From a virus (taxonomy: Duplodnaviria; Caudoviricetes): DNA of 64,000 nucleotides. Shown here one piece after another: positions 5,543 to 62,220 of this stretch. Location: IMG/VR virus record IMGVR_UViG_3300034062_005355; one strand, 5' to 3'. The position numbers and the translations under genes are program-made. Positions within the stretch are counted from its first letter, which is position 1, and each line of letters opens with the position of its first letter. The notes under the pieces are model-generated. The model worked only from the letters and a program-made list of their open reading frames with translations, ran no database searches and was not told the DNA's origin.

Positions 5543-6574
5543 ATGAGTCAAATTATAATAACTGAAAAACAATTGGGACTTATCACCAATAAAGTTTTAA
5601 GTGAACAAAAATCCAAAAAAGGAACCATTAATGAATCTTTATTTAGTTTTGAAAATATTTTAATGGCTGCAGGGTTTGTTCCTGTTGTTGGAGAAATTGC
5701 TGATATTGCTTTAATATGTTACTACCTCTATAAAGGTGAAAAATTATACGCAGCGTTAATGTTAATAGCGTTAATCCCAACCGTTGGTGATTTTATTGCT
5801 AAACCGATTATTAAATTATTCAAAGGGAGTGGAGGAGGAGCTGCGGCCATGAAAGCAGGAGGTAAAACATTAACAGAATATTTGGCAAAAAACCCTCAAA
5901 TAGCTAAAAAGTTTAGTAGTTTAGGTAAATACGTTAAAGAACCTGCAGTTCAAAATACAGTTAAAGGAATTGAAAAAGTTAGTCCGGGGTTAGCGTCAAA
6001 ATTAAGAAGTGGTTTAGATATGATTACTGGTAATAAAGCTTTAAGTGGAATTAAGGCAGGTGGTAAAGAGGTTATCGCAGGCGGAAGTTTCAAAACAGGA
6101 TTAAAAGATTATTTCCAAGGACAAAGATTATCTAAGTATTTTGAAAAACGTGGTGTTCTACCTGAAACAGGCATTAAAAGATGGTGGTTGAATGTTGGAG
6201 CAAGACAAGATAGAAGAAATGCTTTTAGACAATTTATTGTGGCAAATAATTTATTAGCTTACTTTGGAATACCATCATTATCTACTTTTGAAAGAAAATT
6301 ATCAGATGATGCCGAATTTAGAAAAAAAGTTGCAGAAGACCCAAAAACAAGTGATTATATCGCACAAAACTTTGAAAAAGGAGATATGGTGACAAAACAA
6401 CAAACCCCTGAAACTACACCATCTAAAGAAGAAATTGACCAATACATTAAAAATAGGAACTCAGGTAACTCTGCAAGTTCATTGTTTAATATGGGAAGTA
6501 TTAATTTAAATAATAAAGACGGATTCTCAAATATTTTTACTACAATGTTTGGGGGTTCTCCACAAGTATCATAA
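5543..6574 (+). CDS. IITE-leader protein with pre-toxin-TG-like segment
   Basis: MSQIIITEKQ leader; GFVPVVGEIAD...LIPTVG resembles PT-TG; TATTTATA at 5521. Confidence 0.6.
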   Translation: MSQIIITEKQLGLITNKVLSEQKSKKGTINESLFSFENILMAAGFVPVVGEIADIALICYYLYKGEKLYAALMLIALIPTVGDFIAKPIIKLFKGSGGGAAAMKAGGKTLTEYLAKNPQIAKKFSSLGKYVKEPAVQNTVKGIEKVSPGLASKLRSGLDMITGNKALSGIKAGGKEVIAGGSFKTGLKDYFQGQRLSKYFEKRGVLPETGIKRWWLNVGARQDRRNAFRQFIVANNLLAYFGIPSLSTFERKLSDDAEFRKKVAEDPKTSDYIAQNFEKGDMVTKQQTPETTPSKEEIDQYIKNRNSGNSASSLFNMGSINLNNKDGFSNIFTTMFGGSPQVS

Positions 6575-6596
6575 AACTAAGTATAATAGTAAAAAT

Positions 6597-6962
6597 ATGG
6601 CAAAGAAAATTATAAAATTAACTGAAGGTGATTTAATGAATATCGTTAAAAGAGTCATCCAAGAACAGGATGAAAATTACAAAATTAATATCGCAATCCA
6701 ATGTTTCTTAAATAAAAAAGGAATTAAAGATGATGCAGGACAATCATTAAAATTAGATGGTAGTATCGGTAATTTACCTAACTCTAAAAGTGCTCAAGCA
6801 ATTGCAAAATATCAATCAAGTATTGGTGTTGATAATGATGGAGTATGGGGTTACGAGACTAATACTAAGATGACACCAAAAGATAAAATGATATACAAAC
6901 AGTGTATTTCTGACCACGGAGACATAATTGATAAAGGAATGCATTTACTTGGAATTGACTAA
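6597..6962 (+). CDS. LTE-leader protein with peptidoglycan-binding-like domain
   Basis: Likely start MAKKIIKLTE at 6597; LKLDGSIG...YQSSIGVDNDGVWGYET resembles PG_binding_1. Confidence 0.65.
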   Translation: MAKKIIKLTEGDLMNIVKRVIQEQDENYKINIAIQCFLNKKGIKDDAGQSLKLDGSIGNLPNSKSAQAIAKYQSSIGVDNDGVWGYETNTKMTPKDKMIYKQCISDHGDIIDKGMHLLGID

Positions 6963-6965
6963 TTA

Positions 6966-8363
6966 ATGAAAGGAAGAATAACGGAATCAGGAATACGTGA
7001 TATTTCAGCCTTAAGAAAAAGATATCCTAAAGCAGAAATATATTTTCACCAAGATTTAGATGGTGTAACCACTGCGATTGCAATGAAGAAATACCTTGAA
7101 GATAATGGTATTGACGTTATCAATTCACATGTTATCCAATACGGTGATAAAGAATTTGCGGTTAAAAAACTTGACGCAACTGGTGATGTTATGCCAGTAT
7201 TGGTTGACTTTGCTCACGGTAAACCAATGTTCGTTATTCATACTGACCACCACGACAGACAAGCAGGTGCGGAAGGTACCAAGTCCACATCATTTAGACA
7301 ATCTCGTTCAAATGTTGAAACAATATCTCAAGTAGTTTCACCAAAAGAATTATTCCCATCTTCAGATATATTATTAATCAGTACTGTTGACTCGGCAGAT
7401 TATGCAAAATATGATATATCACCTGATGAAGTTGTGAATTATATTTTTAAATTAGATAAAGATAAGTCATTACAAAAAAATAAAATGTTAATGGGTCTTG
7501 TTATTAACAAGTTATTATTGGCATTTAAAAACAAAAAAGGTTTCTTAGAAGGTTTAGTACAAAATTCAGAACCATCTTTATTGTCTATATTAACAAACAT
7601 TAAAGATTGGATGAAAAAAACTAATGCCGCAAACCCCAAAGAACTACAAAAGAATGCCGAGGCATATAAAGAAACTATGAAAGGTTATCCTAAAGTTGAG
7701 GATAATATTATATTTCAATATGGTGGAGGTTCTATGATTAAGCCAGGTTCTTATGATAGGTATACACCATTTAGGAACAATCCTGAAGCTGACTTTTTAA
7801 TTATGGCTTGGCCAATGGGGTTAGTACAAGCATCTTGTAATCCTTTCAAAAAAGAAAGAGAACTTAAAGGTGTTAATTTAGGTGAAATCGCTCAAGAAGT
7901 TTTATCTAAATGGGAAGACCAATTAAAACAAAGAACAATTCCATTATCTACAATCAAATGGGTTAGTGAAACATCTGCAGTTCCTGAGAGTGTTGGTTTT
8001 ACATTTAAAGATTTTGAAGCTTTATATGGTGATAAGTTTACAACCATGGAAGGGGGAGAAGGGGTTTTAGATCATATTAATGATATGATGGAAACTCCAT
8101 TCACCGAATTAACTGAAGAGCATAGGGAAATGTTAGACAAGATTGGTATTAATACTTGGGATTTAATTCAGGCCAACTCAGGTGGACACAAATGTATTAC
8201 AAATATATCTGGATTAAATTACTTAGGTAGAAGTAAAAGACCACCACAAGGGCAATATAGATATGACTCTGAAAAAGACGATTCGCCTTCAGTTAAGTTC
8301 ACAAAGATGATTGCTCACGAGTTTGAGAGAAAATTAAAAGAAAAGATTAAAGAGTCTAAGTAA
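6966..8363 (+). CDS. DHH/DHHA1-family phosphoesterase
   Basis: HQDLDG, VDF, TDHHD and C-terminal GGH motifs; MKGRITE leader. Confidence 0.75.
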   Translation: MKGRITESGIRDISALRKRYPKAEIYFHQDLDGVTTAIAMKKYLEDNGIDVINSHVIQYGDKEFAVKKLDATGDVMPVLVDFAHGKPMFVIHTDHHDRQAGAEGTKSTSFRQSRSNVETISQVVSPKELFPSSDILLISTVDSADYAKYDISPDEVVNYIFKLDKDKSLQKNKMLMGLVINKLLLAFKNKKGFLEGLVQNSEPSLLSILTNIKDWMKKTNAANPKELQKNAEAYKETMKGYPKVEDNIIFQYGGGSMIKPGSYDRYTPFRNNPEADFLIMAWPMGLVQASCNPFKKERELKGVNLGEIAQEVLSKWEDQLKQRTIPLSTIKWVSETSAVPESVGFTFKDFEALYGDKFTTMEGGEGVLDHINDMMETPFTELTEEHREMLDKIGINTWDLIQANSGGHKCITNISGLNYLGRSKRPPQGQYRYDSEKDDSPSVKFTKMIAHEFERKLKEKIKESK

Positions 8364-8468: not shown

Positions 8469-11400
8469 ATGGAAAAAATAGTTTTAGGTAAGATTATAAA
8501 AAAGATTTTTTTATTATCTGTATTAATATTATCATTAATCGGCGTAACCCAAAAAGAAGTAAATGCTTCTCACGTTGTTGGTTCCGACATATCTTATGTC
8601 TGTACAACCACACCAGGTGTTTATCGTGTTCAGTTTAAGATATATAGAGATTGTCAGGGTGTTCAACTCTGTGCCAATTGTCCCACAAGTTTAAGTCCTT
8701 CTTGTAATATTCCAATTATATTGACAGGTGGATCTGCACCTACAGGTTCAGGTTTACCAACAAGCCCTTGTGCTGGAATTAATTTTGGAACCCAAAATAT
8801 AAATGTGGTTACAGGTGTTAGTGGTTTTGATGTTGTACAACTATGTTCAGGAGAAAAATCCATTTGTACTAATTGTGGGACTAGAACACCTGGTACTTTT
8901 GTTCCTGGTATTGAGGTGTATACATTTGAAGGGAATATTAGTTTAGCATCTATTCCGGCTAGTTGTTGTTTAATCAATATAGGTTATAGTATCTGTTGTA
9001 GAAATGATGCTATAACTACTTTAGTAAATCCTGGCGCTTTAAATTTTTATACTCAAGGTACAATTAATAGGTGTGTAACACCTTGTAATTCTTCTCCAAC
9101 ATTTACAAATGACCCTGTTGCGGTTACTTGTGCGGGACAAGATTTTACTTACAATTTAGGAGCTATTGACCCTGATGGTGATTCTTTAAGTTATTCTTTT
9201 GGGCAATCACTTACAGGACCTGGTGTTACGGCGCCATATCTTTCACCATACAGTGCCAATGTACCACTACCTTATTTAGGTGCGCCAATTCAAACACCAC
9301 CTGCGGTTCCTCCTATTGGTATCAGCATAGATCCTGTAACTGGAGATCTACGGTTTAGACCGATGGGAACCTTTGTTGCTAATTTAATTATAGAGGTTCG
9401 ACAATGGAAAATGGTAGGAGGAGTACCTACCTTAATGGGTGTAACTCGAAGGGACATTCAGTTTTATAGTAGGATTTGTCCTGAAAATAACCCACCTGTT
9501 TTACGAACATGGACCAATGATGGAGTTTTAACCTCACCACAACCAAACTTTAGTTATTCTGTTTGTGCTGGACAACAATTATGTTTTATGATTTCTGCTT
9601 GGGATAATACCGCAGTTACCGATACTACAGACATTACTTGGAACGCGCCAACATTATTAGTTAGTAAAGGTGCTACATTTGTTAAAGCATATAATCCTAT
9701 TCAAAGAACTATGATTGGACCAAAATATGATAGTGTTCGTTTTTGTTGGACACCTGGTCCTGAAATGGCGAGTAATTTACCTTATTATTTTGTTGTTACC
9801 GCCAAAGATAGGGCGTGTCCTATTCCGGCTCGTACTACAAGATCATTTAGTATTTTAGTTAGAAGGATTCCTATAGCAAATATCATTAAAACCAACAAAA
9901 ATTGTGGCTTCTATGATTTTTCATATACTCAAACAAATGTCGTTCCTATTAACCCTTCGTATACTAAATTCTTAATTGAAACAAGCCCTAATTCTAATAC
10001 TTACCAAACTTTTGTTGGACCTAATGTGATCAATCATAGATTTTTACAAGGTGGTTGGCATAAAATTAGGTTACAGTTAACAACAACTGCACCACCATCA
10101 CCCAATGGTTGTCCTAACGATAATATTTGGGACTCTGTTTTGGTGGTACCTCCTGTTGATGTAAATATTAGGGATACTTTTAATTGTTTTGGAACTTCAG
10201 TTATAGTTAGGGCAAATGGACGAGATGGTACGCCTTTTGGTAGTACTTATCGGTATACTCTATATGGTGGTGGTATGGGTTCAAACAACATTATTAGAAC
10301 TTTTGGTATTGATTCCAATTTTGTAATAAACCCAACAAACCCTGGTGTTAGTAGCTCTTACAAAGTTGTTATTCAGGATTTGAATGGTTGTAAAGACTCA
10401 ACTTTATTAAATGTGTTTACTCGTAATTTACCGATTAAAGAGTTACCAAATTCTGTTCGTTATTGTTTTGGTGCAACTGACACCATAGATGGTGGTAATA
10501 GTAATGGTAGTGTTAATATTTGGCGTTGGAATAAAATTCCTGTATCACCAGTATTGACTGATACTGTATCACAAAAAATTACACCAAGAGATAGTGGTCA
10601 ATATATTGTAAGAAAAACGGATTTAAATGGGTGTTCTCAGTTGGATACTATTATGGTTTATATTAATGAAAGAGTACCTGTTAGTGCTGGTCCTAATCGA
10701 ACTATTTGTGAGAAAGACGCACCAATAAATATAGTTGGTGTTGGTACGACCGCAGCCATAGATAGTTTTCAATGGAGATCGATTCCAATATCAAACCCTG
10801 ATGTTGTTTTAAGTAGAACATCAATTCTAAATGTATCACCATTGATTACAACCAGTTATCAAGTGAGAGGATTTTTAACTTATGGTGGTGTTGGATGTTC
10901 TTATGTTGATACTATGGATGTAATAGTTAAACCATTACCAATAATTAATAGACCTGATAATATGTCTTTGTGTAGAAATACTAACATAGTATTACTACCA
11001 AATATTACTTCTACAAACAAACCTGGATTGATAACATCGGTATGGAATTATCCATCAAACCCAAATGCGATTAATGGTAATCAAGTTATAATATCTAATT
11101 TAATTAATTTACCACCAGTACCACCAACACCTGTAAGAGGAAATATTATTCGTCTTAACGTAAACGATGTTGATGGATGTAGAATAAGTGATTCAATCGT
11201 AATCTCTGTCTTTCCTGTACCATTAATTAACGCAGGATCAAGTAGAAACTTTTGTGATTTTGCTAGTGTGTTTAACATTAACCCAGGTTCCCAACTATAT
11301 TCTCCAAATGGAGGTGCGTTAGCAACTAATGAAGAGTGGTTTGGTCGTGGTATTAATAAACCAAATCCCGCGATTAATTATTATGCATTTAATCCACAAG

Positions 11401-13316
11401 GTGTTGACGTATTAACTTTACCTGACACAAATATTATAACTTATAAATTTACTGCTACATTCCCATTAAATAATAGTGTGTTATTTACACCTGCGGTTAG
11501 TGGTTTTTTCGCACCATCACCAATAGGAGGTTGTTTAGCTACCGATACTTTGGTATTTTCAGTAATAAAAACTCCGAAGTTAGAAACAGGTATTGCACCA
11601 TCTTTATGTAGGTCAGGTACTATTGTCGATATAGATCAACATATGTTAGGTAGAAGTACAACATCTATTAACCCACTAAGTAGTTATTGGTATATTGGAT
11701 CACCTGATCAGATGTATAGGACTTCAATAACTAATGGTAGAAATTTCAACCCATCAAGTCCTATATTAGAAAATTTCACCAGACAGTACAGATTAGTATA
11801 TGCTGACACATCAACAACTTGTAGGGTTGCGGATACAACTACAATTCAAGTTAATGAGAATCCTGTTGTGGATATCGATTATAATATTGTTAGTGATAGT
11901 TCAATTTGTAAAACTCGTGGTAGTGTATTCTTCTTTATGAATCCAAATAACATTTCAAGTGTTGATGGTGAGATGAAAAGTTTTCCAACTTTACCGACCA
12001 CAGCATTTGATGTAACTAATGGTAAATTTACAATCAATAATGTTCCTGATGGGGTTTATAATATTAAATATTATTATAAGGATCCTGGAACGGGATGTGA
12101 TAACAAAGATTCAATAAATATTAGAATACAAAGTCCACCTCAGGTAGATATTGTAGATGATGGATCGGTTTGTTCTTATGATGCCATTTTTAATGTGGGG
12201 TTTAAAACAATACCAAGTTCGCCATATACTTGGAATTGGGTAACACCTGATGGTAACGGGAATATTATTGATAATGGTATAAATGGAATTAACTATACCG
12301 CAACACCATTCGACATTATTCGTGGAAAAGTTACTTTTAAAGTTACAACTATAGATTTAACTACCGATCCCGATATTTGTGGTTCTGTAAGTGATTCTAT
12401 AACTTATACGATTAAACCAAAACCAGTTGCTGATTTTACTATATCACCTGATAGAGGTTGTGTTGATGAGAGATATGGGTTGGTGTTAAATTCAACTTAT
12501 ACTGCGGTTCCAAGTATTGTGGGTAGTACTTATAAGTGGTATATGGATGTTACTGATTTTAATAGTACACCACTTAACTCAAATCCATTTAATCAAACTG
12601 TTTTATCACAAACATTTACTAAATCAGGAAATCACAGGATATATTTGTTTGTTGAGGCTGATGGTTGTAAAGATACTACTGACGCTACATTAACTGCTTG
12701 GCCAACACCAGTTGCGTCATTTACCACGGATCCAAAAAGTACAACAATTGCTAAACCAAATTTTGATTTCTTTAATCAATCAAATATATCCGACAATTCA
12801 AACTTAAAATATATTTGGTATTTTCCACCACTAACTCCTGGTATACCAAGAGTAGATTATACTTTTGAACCAACCCAAGTTCAGTTTATGGCAGATACTG
12901 GTTTACAGTGTATAAAACTAACTGCGATTAGTCCTAACGGTTGTTATGATTCTACACTAGAATGTGTTCGTATTGAGCCAGATATCACGGTGTTTATTCC
13001 AAATGTATTCCGTCCGATTAACGTTGATGGAAAAGGGGGAAGTACGATAGAATGTGGATTTGGATGTAATAGGACTTTCAAAGTAAGTGCTACAGGATTT
13101 GAAACATTAGAAATATTTGTATTTAATCGTTGGGGTCAAAAGGTTTATGAATCATACATGACAGATAAAACGTACAATCCTGAGGAAGGGTGGAATGGAA
13201 GAGACTTTAATAAAGGACAGGATTGTCAACAAGATGCATATATTTACCAAGTAAATGCAACCAGTTTTAACGGTAAAAAATACACATACAGCGGTTCGGT
13301 TACATTATTAAGATAA
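8469..13316 (+). CDS. large secreted adhesin-like protein with PKD/Ig repeats and T9SS type B (gliding-motility-associated) C-terminal domain
   Basis: Signal peptide ending ..NA/SHVVGSDISY; PVADFT/PVASFT PKD motifs; C-terminal FIPNVF...FNRWGQKVY...WNG...YIY...GSVTLLR. Confidence 0.85.
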   Translation: MEKIVLGKIIKKIFLLSVLILSLIGVTQKEVNASHVVGSDISYVCTTTPGVYRVQFKIYRDCQGVQLCANCPTSLSPSCNIPIILTGGSAPTGSGLPTSPCAGINFGTQNINVVTGVSGFDVVQLCSGEKSICTNCGTRTPGTFVPGIEVYTFEGNISLASIPASCCLINIGYSICCRNDAITTLVNPGALNFYTQGTINRCVTPCNSSPTFTNDPVAVTCAGQDFTYNLGAIDPDGDSLSYSFGQSLTGPGVTAPYLSPYSANVPLPYLGAPIQTPPAVPPIGISIDPVTGDLRFRPMGTFVANLIIEVRQWKMVGGVPTLMGVTRRDIQFYSRICPENNPPVLRTWTNDGVLTSPQPNFSYSVCAGQQLCFMISAWDNTAVTDTTDITWNAPTLLVSKGATFVKAYNPIQRTMIGPKYDSVRFCWTPGPEMASNLPYYFVVTAKDRACPIPARTTRSFSILVRRIPIANIIKTNKNCGFYDFSYTQTNVVPINPSYTKFLIETSPNSNTYQTFVGPNVINHRFLQGGWHKIRLQLTTTAPPSPNGCPNDNIWDSVLVVPPVDVNIRDTFNCFGTSVIVRANGRDGTPFGSTYRYTLYGGGMGSNNIIRTFGIDSNFVINPTNPGVSSSYKVVIQDLNGCKDSTLLNVFTRNLPIKELPNSVRYCFGATDTIDGGNSNGSVNIWRWNKIPVSPVLTDTVSQKITPRDSGQYIVRKTDLNGCSQLDTIMVYINERVPVSAGPNRTICEKDAPINIVGVGTTAAIDSFQWRSIPISNPDVVLSRTSILNVSPLITTSYQVRGFLTYGGVGCSYVDTMDVIVKPLPIINRPDNMSLCRNTNIVLLPNITSTNKPGLITSVWNYPSNPNAINGNQVIISNLINLPPVPPTPVRGNIIRLNVNDVDGCRISDSIVISVFPVPLINAGSSRNFCDFASVFNINPGSQLYSPNGGALATNEEWFGRGINKPNPAINYYAFNPQGVDVLTLPDTNIITYKFTATFPLNNSVLFTPAVSGFFAPSPIGGCLATDTLVFSVIKTPKLETGIAPSLCRSGTIVDIDQHMLGRSTTSINPLSSYWYIGSPDQMYRTSITNGRNFNPSSPILENFTRQYRLVYADTSTTCRVADTTTIQVNENPVVDIDYNIVSDSSICKTRGSVFFFMNPNNISSVDGEMKSFPTLPTTAFDVTNGKFTINNVPDGVYNIKYYYKDPGTGCDNKDSINIRIQSPPQVDIVDDGSVCSYDAIFNVGFKTIPSSPYTWNWVTPDGNGNIIDNGINGINYTATPFDIIRGKVTFKVTTIDLTTDPDICGSVSDSITYTIKPKPVADFTISPDRGCVDERYGLVLNSTYTAVPSIVGSTYKWYMDVTDFNSTPLNSNPFNQTVLSQTFTKSGNHRIYLFVEADGCKDTTDATLTAWPTPVASFTTDPKSTTIAKPNFDFFNQSNISDNSNLKYIWYFPPLTPGIPRVDYTFEPTQVQFMADTGLQCIKLTAISPNGCYDSTLECVRIEPDITVFIPNVFRPINVDGKGGSTIECGFGCNRTFKVSATGFETLEIFVFNRWGQKVYESYMTDKTYNPEEGWNGRDFNKGQDCQQDAYIYQVNATSFNGKKYTYSGSVTLLR

Positions 13317-42733: not shown

Positions 42734-42737
42734 TAAC

Positions 42738-43154: not shown

Positions 43155-43155
43155 T

Positions 43156-43482: not shown

Positions 43483-43490
43483 CATGAAAT

Positions 43491-44143: not shown

Positions 44144-44240
44144 AGATAGATACAATTTGAAGGTCATAAACACCGTCCGGCTAGGGTTCCATCTTTGGTA
44201 ATATGTTGAAGATAGACACAATTTAAAGTTAATAATAACA
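44072..44240 (+). CRISPR. orphan CRISPR-like mini-array: three 36-nt repeats, 31- and 30-nt spacers
   Basis: GTTGAAGATAGATACAATTTGAAGGTCATAAACACC identical at 44072 and 44139, degenerate at 44205; spacers unique and GC-richer than flanks. Confidence 0.7.
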
Positions 44241-44596
44241 TGAAATACATAATAACAGAAAGTAAAATTAACAAATTTGTATCCAATTATTTGGATGGAC
44301 AAAAATGGTATACATGGGATATTGGAGATGGTGAATTTAATGTTGCCGATGAAGAATATGGAAAAGACATTATTCATTATAGAATCCAAGAATCAATTAC
44401 GGTTCCTGACCGTATGTTTGATTTAATTTATGTTGATGGTATGTTTGTTACAAGGTTATCCAAATTATTTGGTTTGGAGGCTGTTAGGGATGTTAATCCG
44501 TTAGTTGTTAATTGGTTTAATAAAAAATATAATAAAAACTTAAACAAAGACGATTGGGAGTGGATGGATGAAGAAGATGAAGAAGAAGATTTTTAA
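44240..44596 (+). CDS. IITE-leader hypothetical protein
   Basis: MKYIITESKI; ATG overlaps the last base of the third repeat. Confidence 0.8.
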   Translation: MKYIITESKINKFVSNYLDGQKWYTWDIGDGEFNVADEEYGKDIIHYRIQESITVPDRMFDLIYVDGMFVTRLSKLFGLEAVRDVNPLVVNWFNKKYNKNLNKDDWEWMDEEDEEEDF

Positions 44597-44599: not shown

Positions 44600-44674
44600 A
44601 TGAAATACATTATAACAGAATCACAATATAAATTAAAAGGATGGGGGTTTTTTATTTATGGGGTATTTATGTAA
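44600..44674 (+). pseudogene. leader-only cassette remnant
   Basis: MKYIITESQYKLK runs directly into a half-terminator (tgggggttttttatt). Confidence 0.6.
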
Positions 44675-44675: not shown

Positions 44676-45920
44676 ATGAAAGTAACGATTAGCGAAAGCC
44701 AATTTATTAGAATGGTTAATAACTCAAAAGGGTGGGGGTTAATCGGTATTAACGAGGGCGGTAAACCAAAAAATACTTTAGAATATATTAAAGACCATAG
44801 TAATGAATTAGAATTAAAATATTTAGGAACGCAAGACGAAAAACTTAGTTATGGGATGACAGACTATAATTGGTTAGATAGAAATAATAAAGAATTGCGC
44901 GACAAAATTATGTTACACCAAAAAAATAAAAAGAAGAAAAAAGAACGGGACATAATAGAAAAAAAATATTTAGGAACTATAGATGGAAACCCTATTCCAG
45001 GATATAATGTTGTTGATACACTTAAGCAGGGTTCCGAGGATTATTATTGGCTTAAATATAATGACATACCTTTACGTGATAAAATTAAAAGTACAGAATA
45101 TTCTTTACTTGGAAAAGTACCTACATCAACAAGATACGTTTCAAGTGATATTAAAGACCATAGTAATGAATTAGAATTAAAATATTTAGGAACGCAAGAC
45201 GAAAAACTTGTTCCAAACTATAAAGTTGTTGATAAACTCACATATAACACTACAGATTATAGTTGGTTATCTAATTATAACATACCATTACGTGACAAAA
45301 TTATGTTATACCAAAAAAATAAAGATATTGAAATACGTAGTAATGATTTCCTCCAAAACTATAAAAAAAATAAGGAGTTTAATTATCTTATGACGGATTA
45401 TAAGTGGTTATGGTATAATAATCCAAACTTGTTTAAAAAAATTAGATTAGATTTTATAAAAAACCACCCTGAAAAACGTAAAGAAAGTATAGGGGAAAAA
45501 AATCTTAAAGACGTATTAAATAGTATGGGATTTACAGGTTTAATTCCTCAGTATAAATATGATGATTGTAGAGGGTCAAAATCTTGTCGTCAGTATATGT
45601 TTGATATATATTTACCATATACAGGTAAAAATATAGAAATTAATGGTAATATACCAAAAAATGGAGTTTTATTTGAATTTGACGGAGAAGGACATTTTAA
45701 ATCTATTAAAAGTTGGGGGGGTGATGATGGTTTATCAGAACGTATTTATAATGATGTATCAAAAAATGAATATACCAAAACTAAAGAAATTAAATTAATT
45801 AGAATTCCATATACCTCTAATAATAAAGAGTTTATTAAGAGCCAAATTATTGATGCACTTAATAACCCTAATCAATTAGTTTTAACTGGAAATTATCCCA
45901 AACTTGGGTGGAATAAATAA
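44676..45920 (+). CDS. TISE-leader PD-(D/E)xK (DUF559/Vsr-like) endonuclease with N-terminal repeats
   Basis: ESIGEK...FDIYLP...FEFDGEGHF...D..KN...LIRIPY; 60-nt exact duplication at 44787 and 45150. Confidence 0.75.
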   Translation: MKVTISESQFIRMVNNSKGWGLIGINEGGKPKNTLEYIKDHSNELELKYLGTQDEKLSYGMTDYNWLDRNNKELRDKIMLHQKNKKKKKERDIIEKKYLGTIDGNPIPGYNVVDTLKQGSEDYYWLKYNDIPLRDKIKSTEYSLLGKVPTSTRYVSSDIKDHSNELELKYLGTQDEKLVPNYKVVDKLTYNTTDYSWLSNYNIPLRDKIMLYQKNKDIEIRSNDFLQNYKKNKEFNYLMTDYKWLWYNNPNLFKKIRLDFIKNHPEKRKESIGEKNLKDVLNSMGFTGLIPQYKYDDCRGSKSCRQYMFDIYLPYTGKNIEINGNIPKNGVLFEFDGEGHFKSIKSWGGDDGLSERIYNDVSKNEYTKTKEIKLIRIPYTSNNKEFIKSQIIDALNNPNQLVLTGNYPKLGWNK

Positions 45921-46358: not shown

Positions 46359-47315
46359 ATGGATAAAACAATTAAACTTCTTGAAGAATTTCTTAAAGAT
46401 TACACAATGGAAGGAGCCTGTGGTTTTTGGGTGCAACCTGATGAAGAAGGTGGAGTGCCGTCAGTTTATATTGTATTGGATTTAGATTGGTTGAAGGAAA
46501 CCCAAACAAAACCTGGATTTATTGAACGAAGAATGAGACAAGGACTTAAAGAAGATATTAAAAATTGGACAGGTATTGAAGTTCCTTATGTTGGTTCCAC
46601 CGCAAAAAAATGTGGTAGTCTAAATGAAAATGTGTCAACGTATCTTCGTAGAAGATTGTCTTTAGAGGGTATGAAACAAGATATTGATAATCTTGTTGAT
46701 TATGAATTAAATCCATGTGAATTTTCGGATATTGGTGATTTTGTTGCTGAAGCCTGTGATATGTTGGCGCATAACTATCTTGAAGACCTACAAGTATCAT
46801 CTAAAGATAAAGATAAGTTCTATTTTGCACTTGTTGATTTATTTGGGAAACATCTTGTGAATGTATACAAACAAAGATGTGTAGAAGGACTAATGGAATC
46901 CAAAAAGAGAATTATTGTTACAGAATCTCAATATAAGAGGATATTTGAACAGAAAAAATCAAAAGTTGAGATGTTTCAAGACTTAATAAATGATAAGTTA
47001 GAAGATATTAGAAAAGAGTGTGATGATTTGGGATTTAATTTTGAGACTTGTAATGATGTTGATATGATTGAATCTATTAAAGTTGAAGGGGTGAATATGT
47101 TAACAGGTGACAGAACGGACATGAGTGGTAATAAGTATGTTTCAGAACCATCAATATACGTTAAACTCACAATTAATTATTCAAGTATTATCCCATCAAA
47201 GGATTTTGACGAAATTATTTATGATTTAAAATGGATGTTAAAAAAATCAACAGGTGGATTACCAATTGTATTGGATTATCAAATAAATAATTTGAACACA
47301 AATAAAGAGTGGTAG
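46359..47315 (+). CDS. three-module protein with internal LNE and IIVTESQ leader-like junctions
   Basis: GSLNENV and LMESKKRIIVTESQYKRIFEQ occur internally. Confidence 0.7.
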   Translation: MDKTIKLLEEFLKDYTMEGACGFWVQPDEEGGVPSVYIVLDLDWLKETQTKPGFIERRMRQGLKEDIKNWTGIEVPYVGSTAKKCGSLNENVSTYLRRRLSLEGMKQDIDNLVDYELNPCEFSDIGDFVAEACDMLAHNYLEDLQVSSKDKDKFYFALVDLFGKHLVNVYKQRCVEGLMESKKRIIVTESQYKRIFEQKKSKVEMFQDLINDKLEDIRKECDDLGFNFETCNDVDMIESIKVEGVNMLTGDRTDMSGNKYVSEPSIYVKLTINYSSIIPSKDFDEIIYDLKWMLKKSTGGLPIVLDYQINNLNTNKEW

Positions 47316-48895: not shown

Positions 48896-49147
48896 ATGTC
48901 AAAAATAATAAGATTAACTGAGTCCGAAATGGTTACTTTAATTGAGAAAGTAATTAAAGAACAATATGATTCAAAAAAACTTTACAATAGAGAACACATA
49001 GTTAATCGAGTTAAAAATGGCCCAAAAGAGTTAAAGAAATATATTAGGGAATTACCGTATATAGATTGTTCTGATGGTCAAGGTAATTCACATGTTTGTA
49101 CTACAATACCTGAAGTAATTCATGTCTTTTTATCAGGTAGATATTGA
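48896..49147 (+). CDS. LTE-leader hypothetical protein
   Basis: MSKIIRLTESEM. Confidence 0.7.
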   Translation: MSKIIRLTESEMVTLIEKVIKEQYDSKKLYNREHIVNRVKNGPKELKKYIRELPYIDCSDGQGNSHVCTTIPEVIHVFLSGRY

Positions 49148-49520: not shown

Positions 49521-49952
49521 ATGAGTAAAGTTAAAATTTCTACAAGCAAAGGTGATATGATTTGTGAGTTGTACGACAACGAAACACCAATCACCACCAA
49601 CAATTTCAAAAGTTTAATTGAAAAAAAATTCTATGACGGTTTGAACTTCCATAGAGTTATTCCAAACTTTGTGATTCAAGGAGGATGTCCAAATGGTATG
49701 GGTAACGGTGGTCCTGGATATCAAATTGAATGTGAAGTAACGGCACCAAACCAGTTCCACGATAAAGGTGTGTTATCAATGGCTCACGCTGGACGTAACA
49801 CAGGTGGTTCTCAGTTCTTCATCTGTCACAACAGACAAGGAACCCAACACTTGGATGGTAACCATACTTGTTTCGGAAAAGTTGTTGAAGGTCTTGATGT
49901 TATAGACCAAATCCAACAAGGAGACAAAATCAATTCTATTGAAATGATGTAA
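49521..49952 (+). CDS. cyclophilin-type peptidyl-prolyl isomerase
   Basis: FYDGLNFHRVIPNFVIQGG...SMAHAGRNTGGSQFFI...HLDGNHTCFG. Confidence 0.95.
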   Translation: MSKVKISTSKGDMICELYDNETPITTNNFKSLIEKKFYDGLNFHRVIPNFVIQGGCPNGMGNGGPGYQIECEVTAPNQFHDKGVLSMAHAGRNTGGSQFFICHNRQGTQHLDGNHTCFGKVVEGLDVIDQIQQGDKINSIEMM

Positions 49953-50017: not shown

Positions 50018-50194
50018 ATGAAACACATTTTAAATAATTTGTCAGAACAGGAGAAGAATAGTATCCGTGAACAACATACAGGTGGAATGAAGGTTATGAC
50101 CGAGAACTTTAGTAAGTTGTTAAACTCAAAACTTGGTGATTCAAAACCATTGGTTGAACAAAAAGAAGATACATTAGATACTGAAGAAAATTAA
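50018..50194 (+). CDS. 58-aa LSE-leader small protein
   Basis: Translated by hand: MKHILNNLSEQEKNSIREQH...; TATTTAT upstream, terminator downstream. Confidence 0.7.
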   Translation: MKHILNNLSEQEKNSIREQHTGGMKVMTENFSKLLNSKLGDSKPLVEQKEDTLDTEEN

Positions 50195-50248
50195 AACTAA
50201 CCCCACTCACAAGGTGGGGTTTTTTCATTTCTAAAGTATTTATATATT

Positions 50249-50905
50249 ATGGCAAAAAAAGTTATACGACTTACTGAACAAGAATTATCTAAAGTATTAA
50301 GCGATATTTTAAACATGACTGGAGCGTTTGGTGGAAAAGGAAAAAAAGATAATAAAAGTTCTGAACCAAAAAAATCTATAGGTAAAGTATCCGCAAAAGG
50401 TCAAGAACTTTTGAATAACCCAACCTTTAAAGAAAAATTAAAACAAATCTCAAGTGAGATTGGAATTAGTGAAAATTCAATTATTAAGTTAATGAAACAC
50501 GAATCAGGATTAGATTCTTCTGTCAAGAACAGTATTGGTTGTGTTGGTTTAATCCAATTTTGTCCTGACAACAAAGGGGGGTCGTCAAAAACCATCAACG
50601 GAAAAACATATAATTTAAGTGAGTTACAAGATGATTTAGAATTACAATTAGATGCAATTAAAGAGTTTTGGTCTAAAGGTAAACGTGATGGTAAAATTAA
50701 AAATGCCAAAGATTTATATGTTTATAATTTCTTCCCAATCGCAGCGGGAAAATCTGATGAGTATGTTCTACAAACTAAAGGATTATCTGCGGAAAAAATT
50801 GCAAGAGCAAATCCTATTTTTAATAAAACATTAGGTAGACCAATTAATACGCCTTTAACGGTTGGTGATTTAGGAGACTATTATCAAATGACGGGAATGG
50901 TTTAA
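50249..50905 (+). CDS. LTE-leader lysozyme/transglycosylase-like protein
   Basis: LMKHESGLD...NSIGCVGLIQF. Confidence 0.75.
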   Translation: MAKKVIRLTEQELSKVLSDILNMTGAFGGKGKKDNKSSEPKKSIGKVSAKGQELLNNPTFKEKLKQISSEIGISENSIIKLMKHESGLDSSVKNSIGCVGLIQFCPDNKGGSSKTINGKTYNLSELQDDLELQLDAIKEFWSKGKRDGKIKNAKDLYVYNFFPIAAGKSDEYVLQTKGLSAEKIARANPIFNKTLGRPINTPLTVGDLGDYYQMTGMV

Positions 50906-51416: not shown

Positions 51417-51806
51417 ATGAAATATATTATTACAGAATCAAAATTAGAACGGGTAATTACTGGTTATATTAATGAATTATTCCCAATTGATGAGATTAAT
51501 TATACACATCCTGATGCTTATGATGATGAGTACGGAGAAGTATATGAGGACAAAAATATGGTTCAGTTTTATCTTGGCAATTATGATGAAGGTGAAAACA
51601 ATATTTTTTTGTGGTTAGGTTCAGAATATTTTGAAAAAAATAGTTCAGCAAGAGATCGTAGCCCAACTATAGTCGTTGAACACCCTTACGATGACACACT
51701 AATCGCATATTTTAATGACCAATGGGAGGAACCATTTAAAAAATGGTTTACAGAAAATTTTGACTTACCTGTTAAAACCGTTGAGTGGAAAAGAATGATT
51801 GATTAA
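51417..51806 (+). CDS. IITE-leader hypothetical protein
   Basis: MKYIITESKL; FKKWFTENFDLPV; related to 42738. Confidence 0.8.
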   Translation: MKYIITESKLERVITGYINELFPIDEINYTHPDAYDDEYGEVYEDKNMVQFYLGNYDEGENNIFLWLGSEYFEKNSSARDRSPTIVVEHPYDDTLIAYFNDQWEEPFKKWFTENFDLPVKTVEWKRMID

Positions 51807-53254: not shown

Positions 53255-53761
53255 ATGGGAACAAAATTTACGCTTACAGAACAAGAAAGAGAAGATATTA
53301 AAAAACAATATCAATATCTAATCAAAGAATCTGATGATAAAAAAGATGATAGAAAATTCTGTCATGGAGGAAATGTAAAGACATTAGAAGAGATCGTTGG
53401 TGATGACACCATGGAAGATTATATTGAGGGAGTTCAAATTAGACCTAACGGAGTTAATGGTTTGGTTGATAAAATTGAACTATTAAAGACACTTAGAATT
53501 CATCCAAAAGTATCCGATGGTGGAGAACACTTGGCTAGTGAGATTATGAACCATTTGAAAACATATAAGCCATATAATTATTTCGATGAGACTAAAAATG
53601 AGTGTAACTCGGCAATGGATAAAATTATTGAATTGTATAAAGAACATGAAAGTGGTGAAGAATTGGTTAAAGATATTGAAAAGGTTTATGCAATGCAACA
53701 CATCTCACCAAGGGCAAAAGAATTCTTAAAACACGGTCTTGGAATGCTTAGAGGTAAATAA
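53255..53761 (+). CDS. LTE-leader hypothetical protein
   Basis: MGTKFTLTEQER. Confidence 0.7.
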   Translation: MGTKFTLTEQEREDIKKQYQYLIKESDDKKDDRKFCHGGNVKTLEEIVGDDTMEDYIEGVQIRPNGVNGLVDKIELLKTLRIHPKVSDGGEHLASEIMNHLKTYKPYNYFDETKNECNSAMDKIIELYKEHESGEELVKDIEKVYAMQHISPRAKEFLKHGLGMLRGK

Positions 53762-55315: not shown

Positions 55316-55609
55316 ATGAACCTTACAGAATCAGAAAAAAAAGAAATATTATCAAAATATGATGGAACCACTTCTGATGAGTTATTAAACCATCTTAAAA
55401 GAAACTTTCCTGTAAATGAAATTAAATTTGATTGGATGAAAAAACCAATTAAGCAAATCTCTATTGATTACAAAACTTATAACATTGAATACAATAAAAA
55501 ATATTTGGTTGGTAAACTAGCGAACTATCTTGAAAATGAATGGACACATTTAGATAACGCGGTCTTAAGAAGAACAATCAAAAAATTTCTTGACGGGCAC
55601 TTGTTGTGA
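55316..55609 (+). CDS. LTE-leader hypothetical protein
   Basis: MNLTESEKK. Confidence 0.7.
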   Translation: MNLTESEKKEILSKYDGTTSDELLNHLKRNFPVNEIKFDWMKKPIKQISIDYKTYNIEYNKKYLVGKLANYLENEWTHLDNAVLRRTIKKFLDGHLL

Positions 55610-56418: not shown

Positions 56419-59400
56419 ATGTCATTCTCAAGACCATTTACATATAATCCATCACCTAATCCACTAATTAATGGTACTGAACAAGTTGGTAGTTTAGCAG
56501 TTGGAACACCAACATCAGGATTTACAAATAATCCACAATTTTGGAACGGACCTGACGAAGCGTTGGGGTATGTTATTGCTTATCCTGTTTCAGGAGGAAC
56601 TCATCCAACACCAATTTCGGGTGTAACAGCATATCTTGGTTTTAAAGGAACCAAAAACATGACTAATCCATTAAGTGAATCAACATTTGTGGAATTGGTT
56701 AACAGTTCATTTAATCAAAGTTTCACAAATGGGGACGAGGCTTCATATTATTTATTGAGTGAAGGATATTGGACATCTTACCCCTACACACCACTTTTCT
56801 CAGTTCAATTTTTTGAGTCAGGTTCTGATGTAATATTATCTTATGAGGGTCGACTTAACTTAGATGGTTTAGATTTTGTTGAAAGTGGTTCTTTAGGATT
56901 CGGTGGTGGAGTAGTACCAAATGTTGGTGTATTTCTAAATCAAGACGTAAATGGTTTTTCAGCATACGGTGGAGCCACGTTTAATGTCCCAACCTCTTTT
57001 GGTTCAGGAGAGGGGGGTGTTTCAGATTTGGGTAGTGGTAATAGTTTTGGTGTGTTTAACCCGTACGGCAGTTATTTTCTTTTAGTTCCTACGGGATATA
57101 CATCGTTTGAAGATTATATCCAAGGGTCATTATTATTTACAGGACAAACACTTACAAGTTTGGGAATGAATACTGGCACATACAACTATAGTTGGGGGGG
57201 ATACTTGGGACAATCATTTGTTCTTACAATTGGAGGACCAGCTCCAACACCAACACCAACAGGGACAATTGCGGTTACACCAACTAATACACCAACACCA
57301 ACTAATACACCTACAGGAACTGCGGCTGAAACGCCAACTCCTACACCTACAGGTACACCTGCTGAAACACCAACAGGAACTGCGGCGGCAACTCAAACAC
57401 CATCAGTTACACCAACATTAACACAAACACCAACTCCAACTGATTTAAGTGCGATTACCACTTACACCATCTCAGGATGTAGTAGTTCAAATGTTATTGT
57501 CGCTGATTTAGGACCAGGAGCATTTTTCCCTGGTGATACATTCTATTTGGACTTTACAGGAGCGACTGCAACTGAATGTTACACAATTATCAATAAAATC
57601 AACGCAACACCTACAGATGGTGGTAACCCAATATCTTCCTATCCTAATTGTGCCGATTGTATTGACGGAACAACCACAACTTACACAATTTCAGGATGTA
57701 CTACTTTGAATGTATTAGTCGCTGATTTAGGACCAGGAGCATTCGGTGCTGGTGATATATTCAACATGACATTTACAGGAGCAACTCCAAGTGGATGTTA
57801 CAGAATTGTCAATAAGATTGTTGCTACCCCAACAGATACAGGAGCACCACTAACTTTCTATTTTAATTGTGATGATTGTGAGGCTTCATTGGTAACACCA
57901 ACACCTACGGCAACACCAACAAATACTGAAACTCCAACTGAGACTCCTACACCTACGGTAACAGAAACTCCAACAGGAACACCATCTGTAACAGAAACAC
58001 CAACTGAGACTCCTACACCGACAGTGACGGAAACTCCGACAGGAACACCAGCGGTAACACCAACAAATACGGAAACACCAACTGAGACTCCTACACCGAC
58101 AGTAACTGAAACACCAACTAATACTCCAACAGAGACGGAAACACCAACACCAACTCCGACAGGAACAATTGGAGCGACACCTACTGAAACGGAAACTCCT
58201 ACTCCAACACCAACTGAGACTCCAACAGGAACTCCATCGGTGACAGAAACACCAACTGAGACTCCAACAGGAACTCCTGAGGTAACACAAACAAATACTC
58301 CAACAAATACGGAAACACCAACTGAAACTCCTACACCAACTCCGACTGAAACTCCAACAGGAACACCATCGGTAACACCAACAAATACAACTACACCTAC
58401 TACAACACCTTCAGTATGTACTCCTACCGCAACGCAAAACGTGGCGGGTGTTGATGGATTAACAGGATTTTTCTTTGGTGGATTCCCAACACCACTTGGA
58501 ATAGTTCAAGTTGGATGGTATGCTAATGGACCTGGTGTTTTAGACGCATTGGTCACTAATATTGATAGTGTGAATCAAAATATTACTATAGCTCCAGGAA
58601 ACGGAGTATTTGTTTCTGGTAGTTTCTATACTTTCTGTAACGCACCTCAATTCCCTAATGTTACACCAACATCGACTCCAACTGAGACGGAAACTCCTAC
58701 TCCTACACCAACAAATACTGAGACTCCGACTAATACTCCAACTGAAACACCTACAAATACACCAACCAATACGCCTACTGAAACTCCAACACCTACTCCA
58801 ACTGAAACACCTACCGAGACTCCTACTGAAACTCCTACTGAAACTCCTACTGAAACTCCAACAAATACTCCAACTGAAACACCAACTGTAACCGAAACTC
58901 CAACAGGAACACCAACAGGAACACCAGAAGCAGAAACTCCTACTCCTACACCAACAAATACTGAGACTCCGACTAATACTCCAACTGAAACACCTACAAA
59001 TACACCAACCAATACGCCTACAGAAACTGAAACACCTACTCCAACTCCTACGAATACAGAAACTCCAACCAATACTCCAACTGAAACAGAAACTCCAACT
59101 GAAACACCAACTAATACTCCAACAGGAACACCAGAAGCAGAAACTCCTACTCCTACACCGACAGTAACTGAAACTCCAACTAATACTCCTACACCAACTG
59201 TAACAGAAACTCCAACAAATACGCCTACTAATACTACAACCACCACACCTTCAGTTACACCAACAAACAGTATTAATGGTAGTGCGTTGTTCAATGATAC
59301 TAATTTCCTTACTATAAGTGGAAACACAGGTACTGCTATGGGAATAGGTGATTTTACTTGGGAGTGTTGGGTTTATCCGACTAGTAGTTTAGGATTTCAA

Positions 59401-60828
59401 ACATTTATAGACACTAGAACAAATCCACTTAGTGGTGGTGATACTACAGGTTATTATTTTGGTACAAATAATAACACATTAACTCCTATGGTTTATACAA
59501 ATGGCATTCTTTTACAATCAACAAACAACATAACATTAAATGGATGGAATCACGTTGCGTTGACTAAAGTAAGCGGAACCTTAAATATTTGGATAAATGG
59601 TGTTAATAGTGGTAGTGTCTCAGATGCGTTTACAAATTTGACAAACCAAAGAATACTCATCGGAGGTGCCGCTGCCAACTCGGCAGCATTAACTTTAACA
59701 GGAAACCTTAGTAATATTCGTATTACAAAAGGAGTTGCGGTCTACACGGCAAACTTTACTAAACCAACAACTAACTTTACCGTAACTCAATCAGCAAATG
59801 TTAATGGTAATCCATCGGCAGCAATTACGTCAGGACAAACCCAAGTATTATTAAACACTAATTTTGGTGGTGGATTCTTAACAGATACTTCTACCAATAA
59901 CTTTACTGTAGTAAATAATAACGGAGTGACGAGTTCGACTTTTGAGCCATTTACTCCTATTCCATTCCCAACACCAACTCCAACTAATACTCCTACTAAC
60001 ACCGCAACTCCAACACCAACAACAACCGAGACTCCTACAGAAACTCCAACAAATACTCCTACACCGACAGTAACAGAAACTCCAACAAATACTCCTACAC
60101 CTACTAATACTGAAACACCAACTAATACTCCTACACCAACAAATACTGAAACTCCTACACCAACTATAACTGAAACACCAACTAATACTCCTACACCAAC
60201 TATAACTGAAACACCAACTAATACTCCTACACCAACTATAACTGAAACACCAACTAATACTCCTACACCAACTATAACTGAAACTCCAACAAATACTCCT
60301 ACACCAACTATAACTGAAACTCCTACTGAAACACCAACAAATACTCCAACACCAACAGTAACTCCTACATCGGGAGTAACAGGTGATTTTAATATAACCA
60401 TTTCACAAGTAACAGGCCCTAACGTTGTATGGTCAGGTTCGGGTTCATTTAATTTAAGTGGTTTAACATCTGGTGGAAGTCCAAGTGGTCTTGCAGTGTC
60501 TGAAGTATCAAACGGACTTTGGATAGTAGGACCAACAGGATCTATTAATTTTAATGCATACAATGGTGTGACAACATTCCCATCTAACTTTGGAACAGGA
60601 GGTACATTTTTCCCTGACTCAGGTTCAGGAAGTTTTGGTATAGTATCAAATGAAACAAACAGAACTTTATTAGTACCTACAGGATATGTCTCAGGTGACT
60701 TTATAATTGGTACTTCAACATATGAAGGTGAAACACTTATATCTATGGGATTAAGTGCAGGAGATATATTCACTTGGAGTTGGGGTTCAGGAGAAAATAC
60801 AAGTACAATAGTGATGAGTATCATATAA
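56419..60828 (+). CDS. large fibre/surface protein with Thr-Pro-rich (mucin-like) linkers and a LamG/ConA-like domain
   Basis: Long TPTETPTN tracts; [10 protein letters not shown]...WNHVALTK...LNIWING...[11 protein letters not shown]. Confidence 0.75.
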
Positions 60829-60859
60829 TAGATATTTATTAATATAAAACCAAGATACT

Positions 60860-61114
60860 ATGAAAAAATTTTTTAGCAACTTATTTAACGACAATAACTC
60901 AATTAATGAAAAGGCGGTTATCGGATTTATGGCATTTACAATGATGTGCATGTTCGCAGTAGTTGACATCATAACAGGCGCAATGAATAAACCACTATTG
61001 ATTAATGAGTTTATTTTTGATTCATTTAAATTTATCACAATTGCTTGTTTTGGTATTGCATCCGTTGATAAGTTCATCAACCTGACAAAAGGTAAAAACG
61101 AAGACGAAGAGTAA
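60860..61114 (+). CDS. small two-TM protein (holin-like)
   Basis: Two hydrophobic helices; acidic C-terminus. Confidence 0.55.
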   Translation: MKKFFSNLFNDNNSINEKAVIGFMAFTMMCMFAVVDIITGAMNKPLLINEFIFDSFKFITIACFGIASVDKFINLTKGKNEDEE

Positions 61115-61173
61115 CTTACTAATCCCCACTCACAAGGTGGGGATTTTTGTTATTATCAAGTATTTATTGAGAT

Positions 61174-62220
61174 ATGAGAGATTTAATTAAAAAAATTTTA
61201 AATGAACAATTGTATGAAAAGTCGGTAATTGCTGAAATGGCAAAGGCGAAAGGTTATTGTGGAAAACATTTTAGTTCAATATCTCCAGAATTACCATTCT
61301 GTAACGCGGCAGAAAATTACATTAAAACTGAAATCGAACAAATTGGTAAAAGAAAATCAAAAGTAATTTTTGACAAATTTAGAAAAGGTCTTGCCAGTTT
61401 TTATGAGAAAATTGAAGACGATGTTTTAGAAATAAAAATTGAAGAACTTACCAATATTCATAATGTTGTGATTGAAGGAAAAAAAGAACTTCAAGACGCC
61501 GAAAATATGTTAAGAGGTAATTGTACAAATATTAATTACGTTGCCAAAAGACAAGTTAACTTATTGAAAGATAAGGCTCAATTATATTTTACAGGTAAAA
61601 ATGGTGAATATAGTTTAACAAACAGATTGGACACCAACTATTCAGCGATTGCTATTTTATTTACAAAATTTTTCTCAAAAAAAGGTGCGTTTGATGGTGT
61701 TGGATATGATAGTAATAATGATTGGGTAAAAATTACAAAAAATTGGATTGAACATTCATTTAATCCATCAATTAACTTTATAGACATTAGACCTGAACAC
61801 GAAAAAAATGATAAATCTGCAGAATTAAGTAGTTTAGAATTTCAAGAATTAGCAAAAATATATTTTAGTAATAGTATTACGTTTGGTTCAAGTGAAATTA
61901 GAAGTATGGTTGATGATGTTCTAACTGATGTTAGAAAGAGAGGTTTTGAAAGTGAAAAACAATTTGAAAAATCTTATTTGGATGACGGAAAAAAAGAATT
62001 TAAACGATACGCTAAAGACTATGGATTTGTTGATAGATTTTTAGGTATTGATTTTATTTATAAAGGAAAAAACTTTTGGATTCCAGTACAAGTTAAATCT
62101 AGCCCGCAAGAAGCGACATATCTGATTAGTAGTTTAGGTTGTAAAACTTATGTAATTGCCGAAAAAACAGGTAAAACTTTTAAAATTAACACATTACATT
62201 CTGATAAATTAAGTGATTAA
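61174..62220 (+). CDS. LNE-leader protein with C-terminal PD-(D/E)xK-like nuclease motif
   Basis: MRDLIKKILNEQ; VDRFLGIDF...PVQVKS. Confidence 0.55.
   Translation: MRDLIKKILNEQLYEKSVIAEMAKAKGYCGKHFSSISPELPFCNAAENYIKTEIEQIGKRKSKVIFDKFRKGLASFYEKIEDDVLEIKIEELTNIHNVVIEGKKELQDAENMLRGNCTNINYVAKRQVNLLKDKAQLYFTGKNGEYSLTNRLDTNYSAIAILFTKFFSKKGAFDGVGYDSNNDWVKITKNWIEHSFNPSINFIDIRPEHEKNDKSAELSSLEFQELAKIYFSNSITFGSSEIRSMVDDVLTDVRKRGFESEKQFEKSYLDDGKKEFKRYAKDYGFVDRFLGIDFIYKGKNFWIPVQVKSSPQEATYLISSLGCKTYVIAEKTGKTFKINTLHSDKLSD

Follow-up and report, generated by a model that had tools for sequence, protein, structure and literature searches.

Interchangeable N-terminal leader peptides on unrelated genes of an uncultured Bacteroidota phage, candidates for T4-like prohead-targeting propeptides

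The 64,000-nucleotide stretch of IMG/VR record IMGVR_UViG_3300034062_005355 analysed here (the window) comes from an uncultured giant lake phage of Bacteroidota, and about two dozen of its otherwise unrelated genes begin with interchangeable leader peptides. The window is densely coding, low in G+C (29-34%) and without Shine-Dalgarno sequences; apart from the leader genes it carries one tRNA-Met, a DNA methylase, a 1615-amino acid (aa) CHU_C protein and a 1469-aa lectin-like protein. By synteny it is collinear with complete uncultured viral genomes of 304-321 kb. In the relative G002, the region from 265 to 181 kb corresponds to 1.4-56.6 kb of the window in reverse orientation, with 65-75% identity in conserved genes and hypervariability in the leader-rich parts. 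Searches of deposited phages with the DNA of the 1615-aa gene, and by tblastn with the protein encoded at 48896, returned no match.

A first-pass annotation of the window had listed 26 genes with one N-terminal I/L-x-E leader. All 26 coordinates are in-frame ATG starts with the N-termini that it described, and genes are named below by these start positions (Table 1). The leader is not a single one, however, as five distinct classes of 7-24 residues could be distinguished: class A (MKYIITE-SQ), class B (MKKVIRLTESDLxRIVKRVIxE), class C1 (MNLQENIxRIKEMMGxIxE), class C2 (MNLQExIRKVLREE) and class E (MRDLIKKILxE). Profile hidden Markov models (HMMs), trained solely on sequences from other phages, recovered 20 of the 26 genes, 14 of them in class A, three in class B (6597, 48896 and 50249), two in class C1 (29553 and 30380) and one in class C2 (37612). 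The class-A matches were strong (E 1e-9 to 3e-6) for 24554, 25152, 27742, 28231, 28670, 42494, 42738, 43156, 43823, 44240 and 51417, and weaker (E 4e-3 to 1e-2) for 5543, 35108 and 44676. Gene 61174 was assigned to class E by motif count, the pattern M[RK][DE]LI[KR]K[IV][LI]xE being present at 13 N-termini on unrelated cargos. The remaining five are marginal (6966, 50018, 53255 and 55316) or a leader-only stub (44600). A candidate "class D" motif in 50018, 53255 and 55316 was rejected; it occurs mostly in orthologs of one small protein, and these three genes are, therefore, kept as marginal. One copy had been overlooked at first pass, an internal leader at 46893 within the open reading frame (ORF) 46359-47315.

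The leaders behave as a genuine N-terminal family. In a six-frame translation, 12 of 13 matches to the class-A core lie no more than 8 residues after an initiating Met (expected, 11%). An all-against-all BLAST comparison of the products without their first 25 residues gave three weak pairs only, in agreement with the earlier claim that the cargos are unrelated. At the conserved leader residues, Thr is specified by four codons, Ser by both TCN and AGY, Leu by TTR and CTN, and Arg by AGR and CGN. Because the codons vary synonymously at conserved positions, selection acts on the peptide, not on the RNA or DNA.

Table 1. Leader genes and related features of the window. Here and in the text, a slash marks the position after a leader-ending or site-ending residue; E values are from the profile HMMs.
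Coordinates	Strand	Product (aa)	Leader	Cargo and remarks
5543-6574	+	343	A/B hybrid, MSQIIITE...VLSE/Q	basic cargo; class-A HMM E 7e-3
6597-6962	+	121	class B, ...IIKLTEGDLMNIVKRVIQE/Q (E 3e-12)	weak PG_binding_1 match
6966-8363	+	465	marginal, MKGRITE/S	DHH-like; core gene
24554-25150	+		class A	cargo family also behind class-C2 leader
25152-25460	+		class A	
27425-27742	-		class A	
27746-28231	-		class A	LRR-like cargo
28335-28670	-		class A	"RRR-helix" cargo
29553-30383	+		class C1	module X, module Y, then basic C-terminal tail after ELTE
30380-30904	+		class C1	single cargo
34668-35108	-	146	weak class A, MKVTITE/S (E 4e-3)	
37612-37950	+	112	class C2, MNLQDTIRKVLKE/E	"RRR-helix" cargo family
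40201-40659	+		none	72% identical paralog of the 28231 cargo; homology begins directly past ...LISEQ
42494-44596	+		class A	five genes in a row: 42494, 42738, 43156, 43823, 44240
43491-43826	+		none	non-leader gene interrupting the 42494-44596 row
44600-44674	+	24 codons	leader only, MKYIITESQYKL...	stub continuing into terminator-like and promoter sequence
44676-45920	+	414	weak class A, MKVTISE/S	HNH/homing-endonuclease-like C-terminal part
46359-47315	+			three-module chain; junctions GSLNE/ and internal leader copy (KRIIVTESQYKRIFEQ, from 46893)
48896-49147	+	83	class B	cargo behind class-A leaders in other phages
50018-50194	+	58	marginal, MKHILNNLSEQEK...	conserved small protein
50249-50905	+	218	class B	hypervariable linker and SLT lytic transglycosylase; clade core gene
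51417-51806	+	129	class A (E 7e-8)	
53255-53761	+	168	marginal, ...FTLTEQE...	
55316-55609	+	97	marginal, MNLTESEKKEI...	
61174-62220	+	348	class E, MRDLIKKILNE/Q	leader type found on relatives' structural-module genes

The anatomy of the leaders was read from 112 stretches of IMG/VR, G002 and the window, which together yielded 353 proteins of class A, 72 of class B and 47 of class C. Class B, in its fuller form MKK[IV][IV][RK]LTESDLx[RK][IL]V[KR]R[VI][IV]xE, holds 2-4.3 bits per position over 21 positions and falls below 1.5 bits directly past the terminal [IVL]-x-E; the terminal Glu is present in 66 of the 72 sequences, and the residue at P3 is I, V or L. Classes C1 (...MG[VIL][IV]xE), C2 (...VLREE) and E (...[IV][LI]xE) likewise terminate in [ILV]-x-E. 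In a subset of class A, a further [ILVM]xE follows at residue 15 or 16, and this subset includes two of the three reverse-strand genes in 27425-28670 (second [IL]xE at residues 15-16). Classes B and C also hold an early site (RLTE or LQE), which gives most leaders two candidate sites. An amphipathic helix is predicted for classes B, C and E. For the class-A family that includes 43823, an AlphaFold2 (AF2) model (48 sequences; predicted local distance difference test score, pLDDT, 87) leaves residues 1-6 as coil and begins helix 1 at E7; a fold search of the PDB with this class-A cargo model found nothing at E <= 0.001.

The same cargo can stand behind leaders of different classes. One cargo family occurs both as ...NFLLE/GLHDTSW (class A) and as ...MGVINE/GLHDTSW (class C1). 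The 48896 cargo is found with class-B and with class-A leaders, the 24554 cargo with class-A and with class-C2 leaders, and the "RRR-helix" cargo (28670 and 37612) with leaders of all three classes A, B and C2. Homology starts exactly at the terminal Glu in the clearest cases, and a few residues earlier where the leaders themselves align. The cargos are modular as well. Each of the three modules of 46359-47315 is found elsewhere as a stand-alone leader-cargo gene, the homolog of the 6597 cargo is the second half of a tandem protein (P0008), and proteins of the order leader-cargo-leader-cargo are common among the database matches, recurring on many contigs. The leader swaps, together with the 44600 stub, which is likely a recombination or deletion scar, indicate that recombination occurs at or near the leaders.

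A basic tail was also observed at the other end of some products. Residues encoded at 30270-30383, the C-terminus of ORF 29553-30383, and the C-termini of proteins in L006 and L024 share the form ...ELTE/[RK]CW[KP]GYTQKGMKTMFGKRYPNCVK.KK on otherwise differing proteins, always with L-T-E directly before it. This tail may be a portable C-terminal module or propeptide.

Pfam and PHROGs searches left nearly all cargos blank, and one of 81 representative cargos had a meaningful Pfam domain (GNAT). The identities proposed at first pass fared unevenly. An SLT/muramidase-like domain in 50249 was confirmed, the repeats of the LRR-like 28231 product are visible, and the nuclease assignment held for the HNH/homing-endonuclease-like C-terminus of 44676. 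The match of 6966 to a DHH phosphoesterase lies below the Pfam cut-off (its G002 ortholog starts MKNLITE/T), no ART-like domain was found among the cargos, and the supposed abundance of acidic cargos disappeared on comparison, the median isoelectric point being 6.1 against 6.0 across all ORFs. The SLT protein, with 706 homologs, belongs to the core genes of the clade, and in it a leader and a hypervariable low-complexity linker precede an invariant SLT domain; this lysin, of a virion-borne type, is the single enzymatic core cargo. Its AF2 model reached a pLDDT of only 58, so the floppy leader and linker in that model carry little weight.

The scale of the family was estimated with the class-B profile against 1.84 billion representatives. 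At E <= 1e-3 it matched 8,820 clusters (50% identity), and at E <= 1e-10 it matched 1,001; in almost all of the best 150 of the 8,820 clusters the match covers residues 1-30. All of ten clusters looked up consist of unnamed metagenomic proteins. Each complete relative carries 6-17 class-B copies.

The leader genes share an upstream element. Sixteen window genes, among them 11 leader genes, have the heptamer TATTTAT 4-6 nt ahead of their ATG (for example, 27743-27760 on the reverse strand, 29535-29552 and 50231-50248), and this fixed spacing implies leaderless mRNAs. In G002, structural genes including those for the portal, the protease and the scaffold-like protein have TATTTAT at 13-28 nt upstream, and many large structural-type genes are likewise preceded by it; the element is densest in the leader region and was not seen before the DNA polymerase, RNR or DnaB genes. 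From this distribution, TATTTAT is probably the late promoter of the phage clade, and its sharing would be indirect evidence that leader genes are co-expressed with head genes. Near-identical hairpin terminators (CCCCACTCACAAGGTGGGG followed by a T-run) were observed at 50200-50248, at 61125-61173 and upstream of 50018. They stand immediately before TATTTAT promoters, which gives the leader genes the look of cassettes of one gene each, with a terminator and a promoter. The stub at 44600 terminates in the 3' half of one such unit.

A link to head assembly is provided by the relatives. The first-pass annotation had proposed a capsid-targeting leader cut by a T4 gp21-type protease and had named the lack of such a protease as refuting. 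Among relatives with leaders and a completeness of 65% or more, Peptidase_S77 (PF03420, the T4 gp21 type) is encoded in 12 of 12 (five of five complete records and seven of seven that are 65-100% complete), and it is present in about half of the half-length fragments. In G002 the head module runs in the order terminase, portal, two small genes, protease at 107417-108133, an acidic 525-aa scaffold-like protein and a T4 gp23-type major capsid protein (MCP); one class-B leader gene adjoins the MCP gene and another is close by. The MCP N-terminus is invariant in ten relatives through ...ENQASxLINE and is followed by a variable S/T/G stretch, the LINE/(A/S) position being 12 residues ahead of the first block that aligns with mature T4 gp23. 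The corresponding sites in the T4 record are gp23 FLTE65/AEIGG, gp24 MAKINELLRE10/STTT, gp67 MEGLIE and gp21 LLIE9. In the protease orthologs the catalytic His and Ser blocks are retained, together with a GILIE that is invariant and resembles T4 gp21 LLIE9, and a C-terminal NLxEE. Furthermore, in two structural-module families, "YMFFSNL" and p297, the leader class varies among the relatives (class B or the ...IIKKVLKE/ type of 61174), and in every case the leader closes with [ILV]-x-E, a few residues ahead of the domain that is conserved (in p297, ...ILRE/ATS). A predicted complex of the protease with a class-B leader scored 0.00, which gives no verdict either way.

The scaffold-like protein next to the MCP (G002 105182-106759, reverse strand, with orthologs in L135-L143) opens with a conserved N-terminal helix and continues in a very long stretch that is hypervariable and rich in Asp and Glu. 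It could plausibly be an electrostatic docking surface for the basic leaders.

The best-supported interpretation of these observations is that the leaders are N-terminal prohead-targeting propeptides of the T4 kind, greatly expanded, and we give this interpretation a probability of about 0.6. In T4, 10-20 N-terminal residues, the capsid-targeting sequence (CTS), are enough to load unrelated proteins into the prohead core, the internal proteins are hypervariable except for the CTS, and gp21 cuts after L/I-x-E, usually at several sites per propeptide (PMC9026906, PMC3012670, PMC5694885); the capsid protein gp23 is cut at FLTE65/A (PMC9026906). If the leaders act in the same way, each cargo gene would be transcribed into a leaderless mRNA from a late-type promoter of its own, with TATTTAT 4-6 nt ahead of the start codon, and the product would begin with one of the five leaders, either the short class A or a basic amphipathic helix of 11-24 residues (B, C and E). 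The leader would dock the protein onto the assembling prohead core, of which the 525-aa scaffold-like protein is very acidic. After shell assembly, the gp21-like Peptidase_S77 would cut past the leader-ending [ILV]-x-E, and often also at the second site within the leader, which would free the mature cargo inside the head and allow it to exit with the DNA. The multi-module proteins 46359-47315 and 29553-30383 would be cut into separate cargos likewise. Docking, cleavage, presence in the virion, ejection and the roles of the cargos, including anti-defence, are what we infer; the core of the capsid proposal survived every test run and is partly supported, through the protease in relatives, the [ILV]-x-E ends, the leader swaps, the leaders on structural-module genes and the shared promoter.

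Several observations weigh against this interpretation. The motif [ILV]-x-E is short and is common in an AT-rich proteome. The SLT family has a leader without the terminal x-E and retains just RLTE/Q, and the X-Y junction of 29553 (RLQKE/G) lacks I or L at P3. Conservation of class A extends two residues beyond the Glu (S-Q), and in the class-A "YLD" subfamily the helix after E7 belongs to the cargo fold. The protease of the window's own genome is inferred from syntenic relatives, and the leader-bearing records, all from one clade, do not count as phylogenetically independent cases of co-occurrence with the protease. Among cultured phages, the closest T4-type Flavobacterium phage, immuto, has a T4-type head module and no class-A or class-B leaders. 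A repertoire of 30-50 different cargos per genome is far above the load of T4.

One could envision that the leaders are instead tags for a machine other than the capsid, such as a modifying enzyme like those of ribosomally synthesized and post-translationally modified peptides, a chaperone or unfoldase (for example, a Clp-type ATPase) or an export or sorting route, and that the Glu motif is incidental. The 21-24 conserved residues do exceed what a cut site needs and would fit any docking peptide. A tag for a radical-SAM/SPASM maturase was rejected, since PF04055 is absent from the five complete relatives and was matched in all control genomes. As read from their sequence, the leaders are charged or amphipathic and have no hydrophobic run, Cys or twin-Arg motif, a composition that excludes Sec, lipoprotein and Tat signals. 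The same leaders are found on conserved structural-module genes, their ends match the predicted maturation site of the MCP, and their promoter is held in common with head genes. We think that a non-capsid tag is unlikely. A further proposal, which extends the capsid interpretation, takes the five classes as an address code and not as redundant variants: each class would specify partners, positions or copy numbers within the prohead, or release times, and the chains would be "cargo trains" divided up inside the head. Alternatively, the tags could serve a non-capsid sorting route of a new kind. We offer this proposal tentatively, as doubtful but worth stating.

Another scenario is that the leader is a permanent N-terminal structural element, an oligomerisation or nucleic-acid-binding helix, that was spread by domain shuffling and is neither removed nor used for sorting. 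The predicted amphipathic helices of classes B, C and E could be so explained, as could the internal leader copies in multi-module proteins and the class-A "YLD" family, in which the segment past E7 forms the first helix of the fold. In the AF2 model, however, residues 1-6 of class A lie outside the fold, classes that differ in sequence and length interchange on the same cargo, and a 72% identical paralog has no leader at all. In the SLT protein a hypervariable linker lies between leader and domain, and conservation stops exactly at a protease-type motif. Taken together, these points make a permanent element quite improbable. Conservation might also be imposed on the nucleic acid, by the initiation region of a leaderless mRNA, the site of an RNA regulator or a cassette recombination site, as the fixed TATTTAT-N4-6-ATG geometry and the recombination at or near leaders, seen in the 44600 stub and the swaps, could suggest. 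The wide synonymous codon variation at conserved residues largely refutes this explanation, the five classes differ in nucleotide sequence, non-leader genes have the same promoter-ATG geometry, and the internal copies are far from any start codon; we regard it as very improbable indeed. The recombination itself may be a by-product of the shared leader sequence.

As prohead-targeting propeptides, the leaders would resemble the CTS of T4 IPI, IPII, IPIII and Alt (PMC9026906, PMC3012670) in being short N-terminal propeptides on unrelated, fast-evolving accessory proteins, in their hydrophobic-x-Glu ends and in their hypervariable loci. Portal, protease, scaffold and MCP form a module in both cases, and a capsid protein propeptide ends in the same type of site. 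The differences are considerable. There are five leader classes instead of one and about 25-50 leader genes per genome instead of about 4; leaders of classes B, C and E have 11-24 residues and an extra internal site, and class B alone stands on thousands of cargo families. Swaps of leaders extend to conserved genes of the structural module, cargos are joined in chains, and the host phylum is Bacteroidota. What is new with respect to T4 is, thus, the host phylum, the five exchangeable classes, the longer helical leaders, the leaders on structural-module genes, the cargo chains and the size of the repertoire; unlike the T4 system, the present one is known from sequence alone. The IPIII CTS, MKTYQEFIAE, shares with the leaders just the M-K start and the hydrophobic-x-E end. 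To our knowledge there is no evident sequence similarity between the leaders and the T4 CTS, and we treat the relation as an analogy or a very distant one.

Among other giant phages, phiKZ, 201phi2-1 and SPN3US use gp21-related proteases that cut head or ejection propeptides after S/A/G-x-E (PMC5694885, PMC10052503). These phages, too, pack dozens of proteins, have a distantly gp21-like protease and several cut sites per propeptide, and include diverged paralogs with identical N-termini (SPN3US gp53/gp54). Their propeptides, in contrast, mostly exceed 100 residues and are particular to each protein instead of being a shared portable tag, their P3 residue is small (S/A/G) where I/L/V is found here, and they belong to a different, phiKZ-like lineage without a T4-type MCP. 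In phage P1, anti-restriction proteins are packaged into the head by the Dar system, which includes DarA, DarB and Hdf (PMC9024508, PMC12810830). There, accessory proteins are likewise loaded during head assembly and delivered with the DNA, but loading follows an ordered hierarchy of protein-protein contacts, not a common cleavable N-terminal tag. We found no paper that describes the leaders studied here, and the string MKYIITE returned 0 papers; the "moraphage" paper on freshwater Bacteroidota jumbo phages places a prohead core protease among the core genes and leaves N-terminal leaders unmentioned.

Four other genes of the window deserve mention. A CHU_C domain for type IX secretion sorting (Pfam E 1e-7) lies at the C-terminus of the 1615-aa protein (8469-13316, forward strand), from which the phage seems to use the type IX secretion system of its Bacteroidota host for one of its own proteins. 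The 1469-aa lectin-like protein (56419-60828, forward strand) is a Laminin_G_3 protein within a segment of raised G+C (0.40), and its internal repeats match G002 at 6, 70-75, 118 and 312 kb. A conserved 143-aa gene (49521-49952, forward strand) is 78% identical to G002 in nucleotide sequence, and the first residues of its product seem to resemble a cyclophilin-type peptidyl-prolyl isomerase. A 195-aa ORF (750-1337, reverse strand) appears GIY-YIG homing endonuclease-like at its N-terminus (GIYKITN...YIGSS).

If the leaders are indeed prohead-targeting propeptides, a short tag would identify, from the genome, the capsid-loaded proteins of abundant uncultured giant lake phages, and class B alone would mark 8,820 clusters at 50% identity as head-loaded. 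Proteins delivered with the DNA act before phage gene expression, and the cargos would, therefore, be a prime place for new anti-defence and host-takeover functions. Were the address-code proposal true, no known repertoire of injected proteins would be larger than that of this clade of giant freshwater phages, with thousands of families, almost all of them lacking any known domain. The CTS principle of T4 would be extended to another host phylum, to interchangeable leader classes and to polyprotein-like cargo chains, and the leaders would provide portable tags for loading foreign proteins into the heads of Bacteroidota phages.

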